A DNA stretch of 10,472 nucleotides, from positions 1-10,472 of the forward strand of contig JAHHIK010000180.1 of assembly GCA_019358935.1 (NCBI GenBank). Reading direction: 5' to 3'. The notes under the pieces were generated by a model. It was given only the letters and a program-made list of their open reading frames with translations. It had not been told where the DNA came from and ran no database searches. This DNA is from Tolypothrix carrinoi HA7290-LM1. GTDB lineage: Bacteria; Cyanobacteriota; Cyanobacteriia; Cyanobacteriales; Nostocaceae. The position numbers were made by a program, and so were the translations under genes. Positions 1,650 through 10,472 of the stretch are shown here, one piece after another (the stretch's first letter is position 1; the number at the start of each line of letters is the position of its first letter).

Positions 1650-1880
1650 TAATTAATTTTCATATATATTAATACATTTCGAGGAATTTAATAAATATTA
1701 AATTAAGAAATATTTATATTATTATAAATAAAACAACGTCAAATAATTGAGTATGCTTTCGTCCTTATAGACTACACCTTTAGAGCGATGATATTTCTAA
1801 ATAAAAGCAGAAAAATAAAATTTAAATATCCATAAAAGAATGCCGTTGCATTCGTGAAAAATCGCACTTATAAGGAATAT
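1650..1880. promoter_or_regulatory. AT-rich divergent intergenic/promoter region; RBS AAGGA at 1872-1876
   Basis: Very AT-rich, no ORF, between divergent starts at 1649 (-) and 1881 (+). Specific promoter boxes not resolved. Confidence 0.4.
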
Positions 1881-2437
1881 ATGATAGCAACAAATGCCCC
1901 AGAAAAACGCGCTGTCGGAGTGTTTACAAGCCGTAAAGAAGCAGAGCAAGCAATCAATGAATTGAAAGCTTCAGGCTTGACGATGGAAAAATTTTCCCTG
2001 ATTGCTTTCATATGCAGATAAAATCGAACAGGTTGGTGAAGCTGAAGTAAGCGATCGCATTGGCAATCAAGATGTAAATAGTTCCACAGGTGCGGTTGCA
2101 GATACTCTCACTGCAAGTACCTGGGGTAGCTTCTTCGTAGGTTTGAGCAGTCTAGCCATTCCTGGCTATTGAGCTGTGATAGCAGGAGGTTCCGTCTTTT
2201 GTGGCACTAGCTACAAGCGTAGCTGGTGTTGCTGTGGGAGCCGCAGCAACTAATAATTTAATCAAGGCGCTTGCTGATTTAGGCATTCTGGAAGAACGAG
2301 CTAGGGTTTATATCGATCGCCTGATTCAAAGTGATTATTTGGTGATAGTGTCAGGCACAGATAACGATATCCAAAGCGCTCAAGCAATCTTGAATAAGCA
2401 CCCTATTCAATATTGGGATGTTTATCAGCATTCATAA
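1881..2437 (+). pseudogene. general stress protein-like membrane protein (glycine-zipper type), three lesions
   Basis: ATG 1881: MIATNAPEKRAVGVFTSRKEAEQAINELKASGLTMEKFSLIA. +1 shift at ~2007-2011, then ADKIEQVG...VGLSSLAIPG, TGA at 2170-2172, AVIAGGSV. Second +1 shift at ~2197-2200, then VALATSVAG...ALADLGILEERARVY...DYLVIVSG...WDVYQHS*. Confidence 0.85.
2051..2058. repeat. HIP1 octamer GCGATCGC (also at 2515-2522, 3240-3247, 7456-7463)
   Basis: Four exact GCGATCGC copies seen, all outside the IS, intron and iscB segments; a cyanobacterial hallmark. Confidence 0.85.
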
Positions 2438-3480: not shown

Positions 3481-5256
3481 TTATTTATCGTTGATGTCAG
3501 TTGACTGTTGCCTTTTGGTGGCAATTTCTTCGAGTTCTTTGAGGTGTTGTGCGTTCACGAGCCATTCTTCTTCTAAGTTAAATGTATCTGAACCATACTG
3601 ACTTTGTTGCTCTTTTAGTGTTGCTATTTCATGATTAATTATTGCTAATGCTTTACCTTGAGTAATTGCCTTTTTTAACACCTCAAACCTTACTGGTTCT
3701 TCAAGCCGACGCAACAAACGCAAGATAAAACGACTGATTCTAACTTCATTTCCCAAATTAAAAATGCTTTGAGATTTCTCTTCAGCACACAACAGTTCTT
3801 CGCCCACATCAAACAAAGTTAGCACAATTGAAGGAATGCAATTCAGAGGAATTTCTTGTTCAGAGTAATTTTCAAACTGTTCAATAAATGTTCTAAGTTG
3901 CGTTGTGCCATCTAGACGTTTTTGATTAGCAACTTTTATCAGTTGTTCTCCAAATTTATCCGCATCTTCAGCCAAAGCCAGGATAGCTTTTATCTGAGTA
4001 TTAGATAATTCCGATGTTGAGAACGTCAGACGAAAGTAGATAGGAAATATTTCTAAGCTACATACACGTAGTTGCTCGCGCCATTTTAATTGTTCTTCAT
4101 CTAAGTAGCTATTACCCCAAACTAATTTTAACTTAGGAAAAAGGTGCATGAGCAGATTTTTAATCGGCTGCTTATCCTCATCTCGCAGTTGAGCAATCCA
4201 GGCATTATGGAGATTTTTCAGTTCGTCTATTGAAGTGTTTACCTCTCCTACAAAAGCATGAGGATTATGGATGATTGTGTCATATACCATTGGGCAAAAG
4301 ACTCGCAGCGACTCAAGAGCAATGAAATCAACTGGATTAACTTCACCTTTCACTGCTGGATATGTAACTGTTAAAGTCTCAGTCAGATGAACAATGTTGC
4401 GGAGGTTAATAATAAAATGGTCTATTCCTTGAAAGTAAATATTGTCCCAGTGAATTTGGTCAAATAGTTGTTTTTCTGTATCAGCAAATATGCCATCAAG
4501 CTTTTCAAAAAGCAACCGACGAAGTGAGATTTTATCTGGAATAGGTAACTCAAAAGCAACTTGAATAATTTTTTCTAAGTATGCTTTTCCGGATATTTCT
4601 TTACTTTCTGCAATTGTTTTCATTACAACTTCTTTATCAAAGACCAGAACGTAGACAACGTTACTAAAATTCGGTATTGCTTTGAAAATGCGAAGTAACT
4701 GCCTGATATCGTTAGCAGGAAGCCGATCAATATCGTCAATCGTTACAACTATTCGCTGCTGCTGCTGTCCTAGTGTATCTTCGACTTCTTCTTTTAATTC
4801 CGAAGCTTCCTTTTCCTTATCGTCGAATAATGTTGCTACTGCCCTGCCAGTTTGAGCATAAGGCAAAGGAATTTGCGAAATAACTTTAGCAAAATCAGCT
4901 ATTCTCTCTTTCAAGCCTTTGGACACAGATCCTTCTTGGCTTAAAACGTTTTGTAATTGGTCAAAAAAGCTTCTTGTAATGTCTTGCTGTCCAGAAAATA
5001 ACCAGGGATTAAAAGGAACGATGATTGGTTGGGATTCATCTGGCTTTTGCTGAAGATAGTGAACTAAGAAGTTCAATAGTGTGGATTTGCCGGAACTCCA
5101 AGAACCGTAGACTGCAATAACGAACCCTTCAGGAAAGGTCATTTTGCAAATGCTGTCTGCCAGATACTTGGCGAAGCTGGCATGTCCCAGCAGGTCTTTT
5201 TCAGGATCAACTAAGGAGCTGTCTGTTGATATATCGTCAATTTCTGTTTGTGCCAT
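3481..5256 (-). CDS. KAP-family P-loop NTPase
   Basis: 591 aa; DLLG..FA..LA..I N-terminus, Walker A YGSWSSGKST, FNPW motif, Walker B IVVTIDDIDR, YLEKIIQV.F.LP motif. Confidence 0.93.
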   Translation of the reverse strand: MAQTEIDDISTDSSLVDPEKDLLGHASFAKYLADSICKMTFPEGFVIAVYGSWSSGKSTLLNFLVHYLQQKPDESQPIIVPFNPWLFSGQQDITRSFFDQLQNVLSQEGSVSKGLKERIADFAKVISQIPLPYAQTGRAVATLFDDKEKEASELKEEVEDTLGQQQQRIVVTIDDIDRLPANDIRQLLRIFKAIPNFSNVVYVLVFDKEVVMKTIAESKEISGKAYLEKIIQVAFELPIPDKISLRRLLFEKLDGIFADTEKQLFDQIHWDNIYFQGIDHFIINLRNIVHLTETLTVTYPAVKGEVNPVDFIALESLRVFCPMVYDTIIHNPHAFVGEVNTSIDELKNLHNAWIAQLRDEDKQPIKNLLMHLFPKLKLVWGNSYLDEEQLKWREQLRVCSLEIFPIYFRLTFSTSELSNTQIKAILALAEDADKFGEQLIKVANQKRLDGTTQLRTFIEQFENYSEQEIPLNCIPSIVLTLFDVGEELLCAEEKSQSIFNLGNEVRISRFILRLLRRLEEPVRFEVLKKAITQGKALAIINHEIATLKEQQSQYGSDTFNLEEEWLVNAQHLKELEEIATKRQQSTDINDK

Positions 5257-6710
5257 AAGAAACTTTTTTTACTTCTACTGTAATCGTGGCACAGTTGGTA
5301 GGGTCGGCAATGCTAGCCCGGAGATAGAATTTTTCAGATAACATTACATTCTCAAGGCATACGTAAATGGTCACATAGTAACGTAAAATTTAAGATTAGT
5401 CATTTGAGATGGACAAAGAAACTATCTTGGATATCTCCCCACGTCATGTAGGAATACTCAAATAAGTTCAATTCAAACCGAAATCTTAAACTATTGGCAG
5501 TATAAACGTAGGTTGATTTCTGTCTACGTGTACTAGTCCCAGCTAAAGAGCAAAAATTACATTATAAAGTAATAATTACCAAGAAGGGGTTGGAGATATT
5601 TTCAATTATTCTCTCCTAGAGAGGATAGAAATTATTTGCTGAAAAAATTTATCATAATAAAGTTCAAGCGCAAATTTTGTATTGAACCAAAATTCTGTCT
5701 CTTTATTGACTTTTTTGGTTGAAGGCACAGGCGCAGTTATATGCCACTTTTTTCTGTTAAGGCAATCAATAGTTAATACTTAGTATAAGCTATCCTTCCG
5801 GATAAGTGAGCAGTTTCAATGCCAAGCGAGCTTATTTATGAAATCCTCTATAACATTTACTAATTAATGCTAATAGGGGAAAGAGTTGCCATGAGAATTT
5901 AACTCTTTAAATCTTGGTACTTCTACTATGCACCGACAACAAGAAGATGATATTTCAGTAGAAACAAGTTCTCTTCCCCCTGTCCCCATTCAGGAAATCT
6001 CAGAGGATAGGGCATTAACAGAGACGGTACTTTCTCCAACTCCGAATCTGCTTTTAAAGATTTCTAAGCCAGAAATTCGGACAAGCCTCACGGCGTTAAC
6101 TTTTGAGAGTGTCTTCGCTACGATTTTTTACAGTATCATTGGCGGCGCGTTGCTCAGTAATTTCTTGTTAGAGCTAGGTGCTGGTCCTGCGGAAATTGGT
6201 CTGCTCGCGGCTATTCCTCAGATAACGAATCTACTCCAACCGTTAGGAGCGTATTTGGTAGACCGAAGTACTAGCTTCCGCTGGTATTTCATCCGTATTT
6301 TCGTTCCGTCGCGGCTGCTGTGGTTGACTCTCGTGCCAGCGATTTGGTTGGTTACGTCATCTCATATCAGTGGACACCAAGTAGTGCAGTTGACATTGGG
6401 AATTATCTTGGGAGCTAATGTCATCGAAGCTTTCGGTCGCGCTCCTTGGCTTGGTTGGATGGCTGTGCTAGTACCTCAGCGGTTGCGGGGGCGGTATTTC
6501 GGCTTTCGCAATAGTATTCTCAGCTTGACAAACCTTGTCGGTGTGCCGTTGCTGGGTCTAGCGGTATCGGTTTGCCCTGGTGGAACACTTAAAGGTTACG
6601 GTGCAGTCTTGGTTCTAGGAATCGTACTGGGGCTAATGAGTCAGGGCTGTCAGTTTTGGATGACCGATGTGAACCCGCAGCTTTTAAAAGTCGCGGGTTC
6701 AGACACATCC

Positions 6711-6818
6711 GCTGCACCAACCCACGACAAATGTGGACAGGCTGAAATAAAAATAGTCGTAGAAAATCGAGGATCTGAAAAACAAGCCTGTCCACATTTG
6801 AAGAGTGAAAACCCGGAC
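6711..6818. repeat. in-frame palindromic insertion (~108 bp) in the MFS central loop
   Basis: Perfect 16-bp inverted repeat CAAATGTGGACAGGCT (6728-6743) / AGCCTGTCCACATTTG (6785-6800) with 41-nt spacer. The encoded peptide is hydrophilic. Boundaries are inferred. Confidence 0.6.
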
Positions 6819-6947
6819 GAACCGCAGCCCAAGAAAATAGATTTTAGCTTCCTCAAAGATGCCAATTTTTTGAAGTTTGTGCTTTACCTGAGCATCTGGT
6901 GCTTTGCCGTTAACGTTAGCGCTCCGTTCTTTAACCTTTATATGCTG

Positions 6948-7143
6948 GTTGAAGAAAGGCAGAGGGCAGGAGGCAGCTATGCTGAAGGAGCAATCGGATG
7001 GGGATTCAAACCCCAACCGATTGAATCCACCGTGTAGACGGTGGGGTTTTATACCCAGTTGGCTCCAGCCAGAAGGCTGAATCAAAGACATAATTTATAC
7101 CTTCTGCCCTCTGCCCTCTGCCTTCTGCCTTCCGCCGAAGGCG
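6948..7143. mobile_element. non-autonomous structured repeat element (STRR-heptamer arms, MITE/REP-like)
   Basis: Left arm AAGGCAG-AGGGCAG-GAGGCAG (6956-6976); inverted right arm CTGCCCT x2, CTGCCTT x2 (7104-7131); several internal hairpins; exact removal restores the MFS frame. Confidence 0.82.
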
Positions 7144-7711
7144 GATAACCTGGATATAGATATCAGCGTAGTAACGATTTATAACGCTTTAGCAACTGGT
7201 GCAAACATGCTAATGCTGCTTTTGTGGGGCAAACTGGCTGACCGGATTGGGAATCGCCCGCTACTGCTATTAGTAGGAGTCTTAGTGGCGCTGACACCTG
7301 TGCTGTGGCTAGGAACCGGAAGCGATCAAATTTCCTTTTGGGTCTGGTTACCCTTGTTGCACGTACTAACCGGCGGGACGTGGGCAGCAATTGACTTGTG
7401 TACCAACAATCTGATGATGGGAGTGTCACCGCTGCGTCATCAGTCTAAATATTTTGCGATCGCAGGAGCAATTGCTGGTATCACTGGGGCAGTAGGTATC
7501 GCTGCCGGTAGCTTTCTGTTGACTCTACCTGGTCTCAATAATTTGCTGGGGTTGTTTGTTCTCTCAGGTTTCCTACGGCTTTTTGCCCTCCTGCCCTTAG
7601 TTTTTGTTCAGGAGCAGCGCTCTATGCCATTGGGTCAGCTAATACGAGTCTTGTTCCCAATCAGGCAGTCAACAGCTCTGATTGAAGTAAAGGAATAAGT
7701 TTTCAACTAAA

Positions 7712-7847: not shown

Positions 7848-8553
7848 TTACGTGGTGTATGAATATCCGTCTTTTTTATGTAACGTTTTACACGTTTTAT
7901 AGCTAACTCCTGTAACTCTACTAAGTTTTGTAAAAATATCAAAACTACCGCTGGCTCGTGTTGCGATCCTTCCAACATGAATTCCTACTTTTTTACCTTT
8001 TGAGACAATAGATTTAACGACATCACCTGTTTGAAAACCGAAATGAAACTTATTTCTAGAACAGTGTCTGTTAGGAAATCCATATTTATCTGTTCTACAC
8101 TGTTGTCTTGTCCCATGACCCATTGATTTAATTAGTAACGGTTTAGTTGTTAATATTTCTAAAGTTTCGATTTTCCCAACACATGCTGCGTCTAACCAAT
8201 GAGTTTTAGGCAATTTCAAACGAGTACGATTAAACTTTGTTAATCCACCTGAACCTGTTATAACAGATAATCCCGTATCTTTTAAACGATTAAATAACGC
8301 CCATCGTGTCGAATTAACAGCAGCAGCATCTCTCAAAGGTCGTTTTGCTTGTAATAATATCTTTTTTAATAGTTCAGGCTTTTTAGCAAGAAACTTTTCT
8401 AGATCTTGCGTACCTTTTTTCTTATTACATTTATCACAAGCCAAACATAAATTAGAAATTTTGTTAGTACCTCCTTTAGCTTTGGGGTGAATATGTTCAA
8501 CTTGTAATGCAACGTTTTCGACATTGCAATATGAACATTTTCTATTCCATTTG
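7848..8553 (-). CDS. iscB: RNA-guided endonuclease IscB (RRXRR/HNH, OMEGA), 3' exon
   Basis: KWNRKCSYC...QVEHIHPKAKGGTNKISNLCLACDKCNKKKG (HNH), PLRDAAAVNSTRW, TKFNR, KTHWLDAACVG (RuvC-III), GHGTRQ..RTDKYGFP, GFQTGDVVK, DGYSY. The ORF-track portion 8554-8705 is intron sequence. Confidence 0.9.
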
Positions 8554-8628
8554 GTAGGGTCGAACGGGGTATCGCTACCCCGAACTCCCATGCAAAACCG
8601 GACATGAAAGTTTCCCGTCATCCGGCTC
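8554..8628 (-). ncRNA. group II intron ribozyme domains V and VI
   Basis: DV 8628-8595: GAGCCGGATGACGG-GAAA-CTTTCATGTCCGGTTT (34 nt, AGC triad, GNRA loop). DVI contains CGGGGTA-GCGA-TACCCCG and ends ACCCTAC (AY 3' end). Confidence 0.92.
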
Positions 8629-8685
8629 CTCGACTGTTTGGCGTTTGTCATACGTACCTCAATTTCCTTTTGAAGGATTAGGGGG

Positions 8686-10347
8686 TTAGAAAAGAGGTTC
8701 ATCACTCCTCATTTCCCACTCTTTAGGTTCCCACATAGCGTGAATGATATCGTGGCAATGTCTGTGTACCGCAGTCAGATTAGTCTTTTTATTATTGTTA
8801 CGATTTTTATCAATGTGGTGTACTTCTATTAGACTATCTGACGTAAAGTAAAGACCACAGTGCGAACATTTTCCCTGTTGCTTTTTCAGAAGTTATGATA
8901 ACTGTTTGGGAGTTTCGGGGTAATCCCCTTTTCGCGTACTCCAGTAAACCCAATCTCCGTCAAAGGGACTTCTGCTGTCCTTTACTTTTATATGCCTGCT
9001 TATCACTGTGTCACTATGTTTGGTCAACCAGTGTTGACCATCTTTGGTAGCAAATACCCAGTGATTGTTGCCCTTGGTTGTCCAAGTTTTATTGACATTT
9101 TCATGACGGTAAATTGCCCATCCTCGGATTTGTTGATAGGTAATATGGTCTGCAAGTTGAAATAATTCTTTACTGCATACCGTTTTGTAATAGTTTGACC
9201 ATCCTCTGACCACGGGGTTAAGTGTTGCAATTAGGGCTTCTCTTGATGAGCCTTTATGTCTATCTATTAGGTCGCCTATTATTTTTGTATGTACCTTCAA
9301 GTTTTCTTTGTCCGGGGTGATGATAGTTTTAAAACCTTGCTTTGAACTATATTCTCCTACCTGAAATTGTCTGATGTTAAAACCGAGGAAGTTAAATCCT
9401 ATGTTACCTTCCTCTTCAATTAAAGTGTGTGATAATCTAGTTTTTTCGGGTTTCAATTCTAAGCCTATACCCTTAAGCCAATCTGCTGTTATCTGCTGAC
9501 ATCTTTGGACAACCGACTTATCTTTGTGTAGAATTACAAAGTCATCGGCATAACGAATCACTGCAAGAGTCATTCGTTTTGACTTTTTACTTTGTTGTCT
9601 ACCATAGTTATTTTTCATATCTATGGTTTCAACATATTGAAGTAGCCGATTTTCTAAGCCGTGGAGGGCTATGTTCGCTAAAAGTGGCGACAAAACCCCG
9701 CCTTGTGGTGTTCCTTTATGTGTTTGACTGAATACTTTCTTTTTATCGCGTGTTCCGTTCGCGCTCCAGTCAATTACCCCCGCTTTTAACCACGCTTTAA
9801 TTTGTCTGCGGATGGTAGGGGTTGTATTTAATTTTATTAGCAGTGCATCATGGTTTATACAATCAAAGCAACGGGCAATATCAGCATCTAACACATATTT
9901 AGGCTTTTGCTTTATTGCTCCAAAAATTGCTTCTATTGCATCGTGGCATGACCGCCCCGGTCGGAATCCGTAGCTGTTTGGCTCGAATTTTGCCTCCCAT
10001 TCTGGCTCTAAGGCAGCTTTTACAAGAGCTTGGGTTGCTCTATCGTTCATTGTGGGTATACCTAACGGGCGTTTTTCCGTTTTCCCCGGTTTATCTATCC
10101 AGACACGCCGAACGGGTTTTGCCTTAGAGGTTAATCTCAGTTGGCTAACAAGTTGTAACCTTTGTTTTGGGGTCAAACTTTTGACACCATCTACCCCGGC
10201 TGTTTTCTTGCCTTGATTATCCTGAGTTACCCTGCGAACGGCTAGTACCTTAGCCGACCATGACATCATCAAGGTTTTTTGAAGCCTGTGGACTGCTCGA
10301 TTATCTCCACGTTGAGAGGCTTTGAATATGCGATGAAAGCAACTTAA
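8686..10347 (-). pseudogene. ltrA: group II intron reverse transcriptase/maturase with C-terminal HNH (En) domain, disrupted
   Basis: RIFKASQRGD...LQKTLMMSWSAK, GKKTAGVDG, RPLGIPT..DR, FEPNSYGFRPGRSCHDA, GTPQGGVLSPLLANIALH, RYADDF, FLGF, LNPVVRGWSNYY. TAA at 8893-8895 is followed in frame by LLKKQQGKCSHCG...EVHH...NL.AVHRHCHD..H to TAA 8686-8688. +1 frameshift at 10333-10339; IS junction at 10347/10348. Confidence 0.92.
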
Positions 10348-10472
10348 CTGGAGTTTAGACTAAGCAACAAGAAATAACCCAGCAGCGCTGAGTCGATCAA
10401 ACACAAGCTTTAAGCACGAAAATCTTCGATATTAAGCAGATTTTGGTTGCTCTTTCCGGGGCTTGGCTGTAC
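10348..10472 (-). mobile_element. end of an IS (probably IS701-like) inserted at TTAA within the intron RT gene
   Basis: RT homology stops at TTAA (10344-10347, codons F-K). The adjacent CTGGAGTTTAGACTAAG looks like an IS terminus, and minus-strand 10470-10432 reads a basic tail TAKPRKEQPKSA* compatible with a transposase C-terminus. Family assignment is tentative. Confidence 0.6.

Follow-up and report, generated by a model that had tools for sequence, protein, structure and literature searches.

The window analysed here is one whole contig of 10,472 nt (10.5 kb, with repeats at its ends) from the genome of Tolypothrix carrinoi HA7290-LM1 (G000; 7.96 Mb in 184 contigs). At one end (1-1027) it holds pieces of two different DDE transposase genes and at the opposite end it runs into a dispersed repeat. 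Between them are found a stress-protein pseudogene, a KAP-family NTPase gene, a split MFS transporter gene (5928-7698, plus strand, ORFs 5928-7037 and 7207-7698; around its gap, at about 6950-6990 and 7095-7140, there are short words that recur on many sister-genome contigs) and an IscB-type nuclease gene hosting a group II intron with the remnant of its reverse transcriptase (RT) gene. The 10-mer TTGCTTTCAT occurs twice, once in the stress gene and once in the RT gene, with no third match in the window. The features relevant to these two copies are the following.

1879-1890, plus strand: start-codon region of the stress gene itself, the reverse complement of TTGCTTTCATAT with one mismatch; candidate template for lesion 1
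1881-2437, plus strand: YflT-family stress-protein pseudogene, in three frames (1881-2005, 2012-2172 and 2204-2437)
2002-2011, plus strand: first copy of the 10-mer, within the stress-gene pseudogene
2006-2011, plus strand: lesion 1, AAAAG in the orthologues replaced by TTTCAT, net +1 (from the alignment to orthologues)
2168-2172, plus strand: lesion 2, TTAGGA>TATTGA, creating an in-frame TGA (orthologue alignment)
2196-2203, plus strand: lesion 3, GT-AGGCGTAG>GTCTTTTGTGG, a second complex +1 change (orthologue alignment)
7848-8552, minus strand: 3' exon, the C-terminal part of the IscB-type nuclease gene that hosts the intron (NCBIfam NF040563)
8554-8631, minus strand: group II intron domains V-VI, the 3' end of the intron (Rfam RF00029, 51.8 bits; RF04357, 53.7 bits)
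8686-10347, minus strand: remnant of the intron-encoded RT/maturase/HNH gene, cut at its 5' side and with an in-frame TAA (Pfam RVT_N, RVT_1, GIIM and HNH)
8893-8895, minus strand: this in-frame TAA, E in the closest proteins (KQLSELIKK)
10333-10342, minus strand: second copy of the 10-mer, the +1 frameshift allele (CTT_TCA_T) of the RT gene
10348-10472, minus strand: end of a dispersed repeat of ~290 nt, standing where the RT gene and intron would have their 5' part and cut off by the contig end

The stress gene is intact in genome G003, where the orthologue has 190 aa and scores 37.9 bits to YflT (Pfam PF11181; gathering score 26.2); the first fragment of the window gene alone reaches 17 bits. 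At lesion 1 the two closest orthologues (92% identity) have ATTGC[A/T]AAAGATGCAGA and the window has ATTGCTTTCATATGCAGA. The derived form was found in none of 11 orthologues (10 genomes), all of which read TTGC-[ACT]A[AG][AG]GA in the alignment, in agreement with the ancestral IAKDA that the first-pass annotation had deduced from the family consensus. Judged by this alignment, the AAAAG>TTTCAT change in the stress gene is real and derived, and private to this lineage. With lesions 2 and 3 it makes up three disabling changes in the decaying gene, which also differs from its orthologues by several clusters of two- and three-base changes; nearly all of the window-specific changes are non-synonymous (by eye on the alignment). 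The G001 orthologue has a TAG of its own, and on its contig the closest genome (G009, 96-97% identical next door) retains just the final ~90 bases. The stress gene is dispensable and decaying, broken or lost in two sister genomes too. A metagenome scan with a 21-mer of this gene gave a single match in an unrelated context, that is, a chance match.

At the other end of the window, the RT, maturase (X) and En domains and the ribozyme domain V of a group II intron with an intron-encoded RT are all found, and both Rfam scores exceed the gathering scores. The match of the 3' exon to NF040563 covers profile positions 190-314 of 314 (E 1.6e-48), and the intron (7848-8631, minus strand) interrupts the gene of this IscB-type RNA-guided nuclease directly ahead of its HNH motif. 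RVT_N is matched from profile position 18 to 83 of 83. The upstream frame of the RT gene is reduced in the window to TT AAG TTG, at a junction with the repeat located at 10347/10348, and the 5' half of this intron has no match above 74% identity in the genome. Other copies of the repeat (80-86% identity) are found at C94:25621-25906, C178:492-776, C120:24353-24561 and C38:65644-65762, with a sharp common end at ...GCTTAGTCTAAACTCCAG; the two copies inspected are intergenic and have no Rfam match. From its reading frame, the window copy of the RT gene is otherwise dead, cut at the 5' side by the repeat and carrying one nonsense codon.

Two copies of the 10-mer in a window of this composition are uncommon (at least two copies in 1 of 200 dinucleotide shuffles, mean 0.08 copies). 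As had been noticed from the window sequence, both sit on +1 frame breaks, and the nearest relatives have TTGC[A/T]AAAG at each site. The change had also been described as a multi-base substitution plus one base, and the comparison with stress-gene orthologues and RT siblings agrees: AAAAG became TTTCAT, net +1. In the stress gene and in the RT gene, therefore, the identical five bases after TTGC are exchanged for the identical six, and the flank that the two sites share ends at this TTGC. The word is entered in different frames, TTG|CTT|TCA in the RT gene and (A)TT|GCT|TTC|ATA in the stress gene, so that no single decoding event could serve both genes.

The two copies differ above all in their distribution. 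What had been taken for a lesion of the Tolypothrix genome in the RT gene turned out to be common to six other genomes. At codons 31-32 the RT family reads either AAG TTG CAA AAG CGC (in frame) or AAG TTG CTT TCA T CGC (+1). A homology survey of RT copies in relatives (37 rows, 36 distinct loci) retrieved the 10-mer at three of the 36 loci (the window, G009:C245 and G008:C60), while 31 have CA[AG]AA[AG] in frame, one has CTCACTCAT in frame and one CAAACA. The exact 18-mer AAGTTGCTTTCATCGCAT was located at 19 loci in 185,579 species genomes (one genome per species), where simple arithmetic gives ~17 by chance; seven of the 19 have an RT context. These are in Microseira wollei NIES-4236 (two contigs), Microseira sp. 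BLCC-F43, Cyanobacteria MAG 341R and Cyanobacteria UBA11372, together with Tolypothrix sp. VBCCA 56010 and Plectonema radiosum NIES-515, whose copies were already in the homology survey. An order-level pattern scan gave 15 matches in 13 of 401 genomes versus seven for the reversed control, with five in RT context, including a variant with CGA for CGC at G548:C388; a phylum-level scan matched 3 of 401 genomes, one of them in RT context. The carriers add up to nine copies in seven genomes (the window plus eight loci in six other genomes) and belong to four RT lineages with 58-72% protein identity. The frame-0 peptide of the allele has two matches among 5.8 billion proteins, and in the plasmid collection, where the best identity was 70%, a carrier copy was not seen. 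Taken together, this distribution shows an RT frameshift allele that is old and shared, and not a fresh lesion.

Some individual loci deserve a description. Genome G548 has three distinct frameshift-bearing RT lineages (C108, C274 and C388) among at least 39 RT-like matches, and on its contig C274 a carrier and an in-frame RT copy lie 2.5 kb apart. In the Tolypothrix genome itself, an intact RT at C31:~2170 reads AAG CTC ACT CAT AGA (KLTHRI) in frame over the same two codons, so H at the second position also occurs without a frameshift. A non-RT locus, TTTAA[AG]TTGCTTTCAT[AC]GCAT, is kept in three Nostoc-type genomes (L069, L075 and L076); its coding context was not recognised and it is probably due to chance.

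A way to approach the meaning of the RT allele is to ask in what state its carriers are. The full RT copies elsewhere have their +1 break at exactly the site of the 10-mer. Three of them (L055, L063 and L068) consist of a frame-0 piece of ~30 codons (M..TVEWKxIxWxxxERxVFKLL) plus a whole +1 ORF, of 547, 548 and 535 aa respectively; the remaining six carriers have additional damage. Whole copies are hence 3 of 9 among carriers against 14 of 16 among in-frame copies (Fisher p 0.0099). Between L063 and L068 the NG86 estimates are dS 0.161 and dN 0.017 (omega 0.105), with omega 0.104 for L063-L060 and 0.07 for L068-L060. For the more distant pair L061-L091, dS is 0.70 and omega 0.19, with five synonymous changes and one non-synonymous change in the 22 codons upstream of the break. 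Of 23 columns per codon position upstream (frame 0), 11, 6 and 16 are variable, and of 30 per position downstream (+1), 15, 14 and 24; the third position thus varies most in either frame, a pattern that fits coding in both. By these estimates purifying selection appears to have acted upstream and downstream of the break in pairs of carriers (omega 0.07-0.19). This selection and the codon-position pattern between carriers led us to reject a disabling change that was inherited by descent and followed by drift.

The in-frame siblings L122 and L126 (94-97% DNA identity to L063, L068, L060 and L064) read AAGTTGC-AAAAG-CGCAT, which confirms the ancestral KLQKR supposed earlier; AAAAG versus TTTCAT is the sole difference at the site, where both flanks agree over 40 bases or more, and L122 is whole (576 aa). 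KLQKRI also stands at the site in two proteins (P0002 and P0003) that share 96-97% identity with the predicted L063 read-through product, and in the proteins nearest to the window RT (83%). In an RT tree, built as a quick version only, the carrier state requires at least two changes and the carriers are nested among in-frame relatives. For lineages B and C, the flanking codons too set the carriers apart from their nearest in-frame relatives and look co-converted, as if a patch of about 20-45 nt had been transferred. Short-patch copying between homologous intron copies is therefore plausible; it would be ordinary paralogue conversion, and not the writing of a motif on host genes. In a literature search with most subscription journals outside its scope we found nothing on a frameshift in a group II intron RT or on the spread of such a patch; passages of PMC2853384 are unrelated to an RT frameshift.

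The RT 10-mer is, then, an inherited allele with two states, AAAAG and TTTCAT. There are two ways to understand it, of which the first, that ribosomes read through the allele by +1 slippage of the peptidyl-tRNA-Leu from CUU to UUU, seems to us about evenly poised. A tRNA-Leu on a P-site CUU can re-pair at +1 when a U follows, which is the classical bacterial arrangement for +1 slippage, and CUU followed by U is found in all nine carrier copies. Slippage at CUU_U would give ...FKL-L-HRIF..., with KL-L-H-RI for KL-Q-K-RI and the spacing of the family kept. As for a stimulatory context, the A-site codon is UCA and there is no in-frame stop, no Shine-Dalgarno-like element is visible in the carrier alignment, and the flanks of the carriers are identical to those of their in-frame siblings, so that no co-adapted stimulator can be seen. 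The lack of such a context counts against read-through, as do the more frequent breakage of carriers, the existence of in-frame siblings and the rarity of the allele. We also considered quadruplet decoding by a dedicated tRNA and rejected it: CTTT works in L055 only, TTGC in L063 and L068 only, and TCAT or AAGT in none of the three copies tested. No four-base word rescues all lineages, and any read-through must therefore be specific to this site.

The second way, to which we give a somewhat lower probability, is that of a disabling patch that would have been copied repeatedly among intron copies by short-tract recombination, the carriers being young pseudogenes. Multicopy group II introns undergo gene conversion and recombination, and introns without a working RT can be mobilised in trans. 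The two ways could also be combined in a functional switch between AAAAG and TTTCAT, in which +1 slippage at CUU_U would throttle the RT and a patch of about 20-45 nt would move between lineages by short-tract recombination; we consider this a tentative idea that is more probably wrong than right. Its boldest form, in which the same patch was written ectopically onto TTGCAAAAG in a host gene, is quite improbable.

This brings us back to the stress gene. Rough arithmetic puts the same exchange by chance at ~1e-4 to 1e-3 per window, a level that is acceptable only given that very many windows were screened. On balance the RT and stress-gene 10-mers probably have separate histories, their identity being a coincidence and the link most likely due to chance. 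The stress-gene 10-mer would have arisen once, in this lineage, by a complex AAAAG>TTTCAT change, and a possible source is a short template switch to the inverted start-codon region of the same gene. Template-switch and quasipalindrome mutation are described in PMC5453318, PMC7202029 and PMC8604942. The derived 12-mer of the stress gene matches, in 11 of 12 bases, an inverted stretch 115 nt upstream, and a switch to this region (1879-1890) would yield +1 as well. Nevertheless, 13 of 400 random 6-mers matched as well as this template, and a test restricted to exact inverted templates gave p 0.07-0.17 for the lesion 1 cluster (0.37-0.98 for five other clusters). The predicted DNA fold is slightly more stable in the derived form (-12.3 kcal/mol versus -7.9 to -9.2), a difference that was set aside as evidence. 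An exact reverse-complementary 10-mer lies 873 nt upstream of the RT site in just one of six copies; it was put down to chance, and a local template for the RT allele was rejected. Non-homologous end joining as a source of complex indels was also rejected, as a Ku gene was not found in the genome.

The alternatives that would link the two sites are all less probable than coincidence. The one that fares best among them, although unlikely, is a one-off copy: repair of the stress gene after breakage or fork stalling would have involved a short template switch primed by TTGC, with six bases copied from the intron frameshift allele, which lies on the opposite strand at a distance of 8.3 kb, or from another of the 64 genomic copies. 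Both copies of the 10-mer are identical and share one contig, and template-switch signatures such as hairpin-loop inversions are found in this genus (for the mechanism, see PMC5453318 and PMC7202029). The priming homology is, however, just four bases, with none at the return point, and at several other genomic copies (C118:2029, C10:94477, C22:9267 and a seven-copy repeat) the match to the stress-gene sequence extends to 12-14 nt, beyond that of the RT copy. Neither the flanks of all 65 genomic copies nor k-mers across seven mutation clusters gave a donor above chance, and one 14-mer match at C89 has an unrelated context. Copying of this kind does not account for the replaced bases being equal to those in the RT family and, as a single event, is indistinguishable from chance.

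Slightly less probable still is a process that recurs and is directed by sequence (through a donor oligo or cDNA, or through biased micro-conversion) and that would overwrite TTGCWAAAG with TTGCTTTCAT, having RT genes as its repeated target and host genes such as the stress gene as off-target sites, along the lines of the templated process proposed in the first-pass annotation. Part of that proposal stands, namely the ancestral reads and, plausibly, short-patch copying within the RT family; a process that hits unrelated genes in this genome does not. The identical replacement in two unrelated genes speaks for it, as do the two or more changes of the frameshift state on the RT tree and the few extra lesions of the carriers relative to their mutual divergence, which would require many acquisitions if the allele is disabling. 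Against this, the product is not enriched and the target is not depleted. The genome has 65 copies of the 10-mer versus 45.5-52.0 expected from Markov backgrounds of orders 1-5, so the genome-wide enrichment anticipated earlier is not there in any meaningful degree; seven copies belong to one repeat and two to another, leaving 58 distinct contexts without shared flanks, and at 16 of the 65 the reading frame stays open for 40 codons or more on each side. Its putative targets are present at 217 versus 239 expected (TTGCAAAAG) and 233 versus 200 expected (TTGCTAAAG). Nor did an enrichment at frame breaks appear: a scan flagged two of the 65 copies, the stress gene and C3:92405 (non-coding on inspection), the RT site escaping it because its upstream frame is cut, and the host-gene case remains one among 65 sites. 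The recurrent AAAAG to TTTCAT changes predicted in sister genomes failed to show up as well, with no second AAAAG<->TTTCAT exchange in 261,009 aligned columns of G000 and G009 (95.3% identity); the sole copy of the 10-mer in this alignment is identical in both genomes, and among 31 copies of the 8-mer nine differ, none of them by a change of the AAAAG type. A donor locus with longer shared context, likewise predicted, was not found in the genome. That flanking codons change together with the patch in lineages B and C is in keeping with ordinary conversion from one homologous copy to another, and the stress-gene changes are not adenine-specific, that is, not like those of a diversity-generating retroelement. 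A dedicated motif-writing machinery is unneeded and unsupported.

That the stress-gene changes are assembly or sequencing errors is very improbable: the whole contig is short (10.5 kb) and ends in repeats, but 82 of 82 31-mers sampled from 1700-2600 are present in a separate assembly of run X1 (possibly the source sample; the bases rest on the assembly plus this one, non-independent run), the errors would need to be complex and not homopolymer slips, and similar complex differences are common over 261 kb of other contigs. This background is considerable. Between G000 and G009 (loci L102-L121) we found 425 clusters of at least three substitutions versus ~65 expected; clusters of three, four, and five or more numbered 295, 93 and 37, against 58.5, 5.7 and 0.45 expected. 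There were also 273 substitution-plus-indel events in the 261,009 columns, including clean hairpin-loop inversions. Part of this excess may come from divergent allele patches imported by recombination. Complex multi-base changes are common in this genus. In the window itself, positions 5032-5034 have GGA where G009 and G003 have CTC, three adjacent substitutions within the otherwise intact KAP-family NTPase gene.

The shared word on two lesions was a tempting false lead that is now removed, and it reveals no mutagenic system. What comes out of the analysis is that group II intron RT genes that are diverged and otherwise intact have, in several genera, an identical +1 patch, with purifying selection between carriers. 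If the patch is read through, an enzyme of a bacterial retroelement would contain a programmed +1 frameshift, by which the intron could set the dose of its RT in a new way. Without read-through, it would be a clear case of a disabling patch whose spread within a multicopy family proceeds over very short conversion tracts. The background of complex changes in the genus is also a caution against taking single complex lesions as the sign of a special process.

Several known systems can be compared with these sites. HIP1 and the cyanobacterial short dispersed repeats, named earlier as the closest concepts, resemble the 10-mer as short fixed words that recur at unrelated places; the 10-mer, in contrast, is not over-represented or palindromic, and its flanks have no common context. 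Diversity-generating retroelements share with the window a nearby RT and clustered changes, but the changes in the stress gene hit all four bases, involve an indel and come without a template repeat, a second copy of the stress-gene region not having been found in the genome. Template-switch mutations produce adjacent substitutions plus an indel in one step, a pattern like that of lesion 1, which has a similar inverted stretch near it; the match there is, however, imperfect and of weak significance, and the RT allele has no such template.

For the RT allele the relevant comparisons are two. Gene conversion among introns would have in common with it the same patch in several co-resident RT lineages (three in G548) and the change of flanks in lineages B and C; its tracts, on the other hand, would be very short (about 20-45 nt), and purifying selection between carriers is not explained unless each of them gained the patch recently. 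From the programmed +1 frameshift of prfB (release factor 2) and other CUU sites, the RT allele differs in having neither an in-frame stop nor a known slow A-site codon (it has UCA), in lacking a visible Shine-Dalgarno-like stimulator, and in having in-frame siblings with identical flanks and carriers that are often broken. With these programmed sites it shares a P-site CUU followed by U and an identical site in diverged homologues, with probable purifying selection in both frames and, in the predicted product, the spacing kept.
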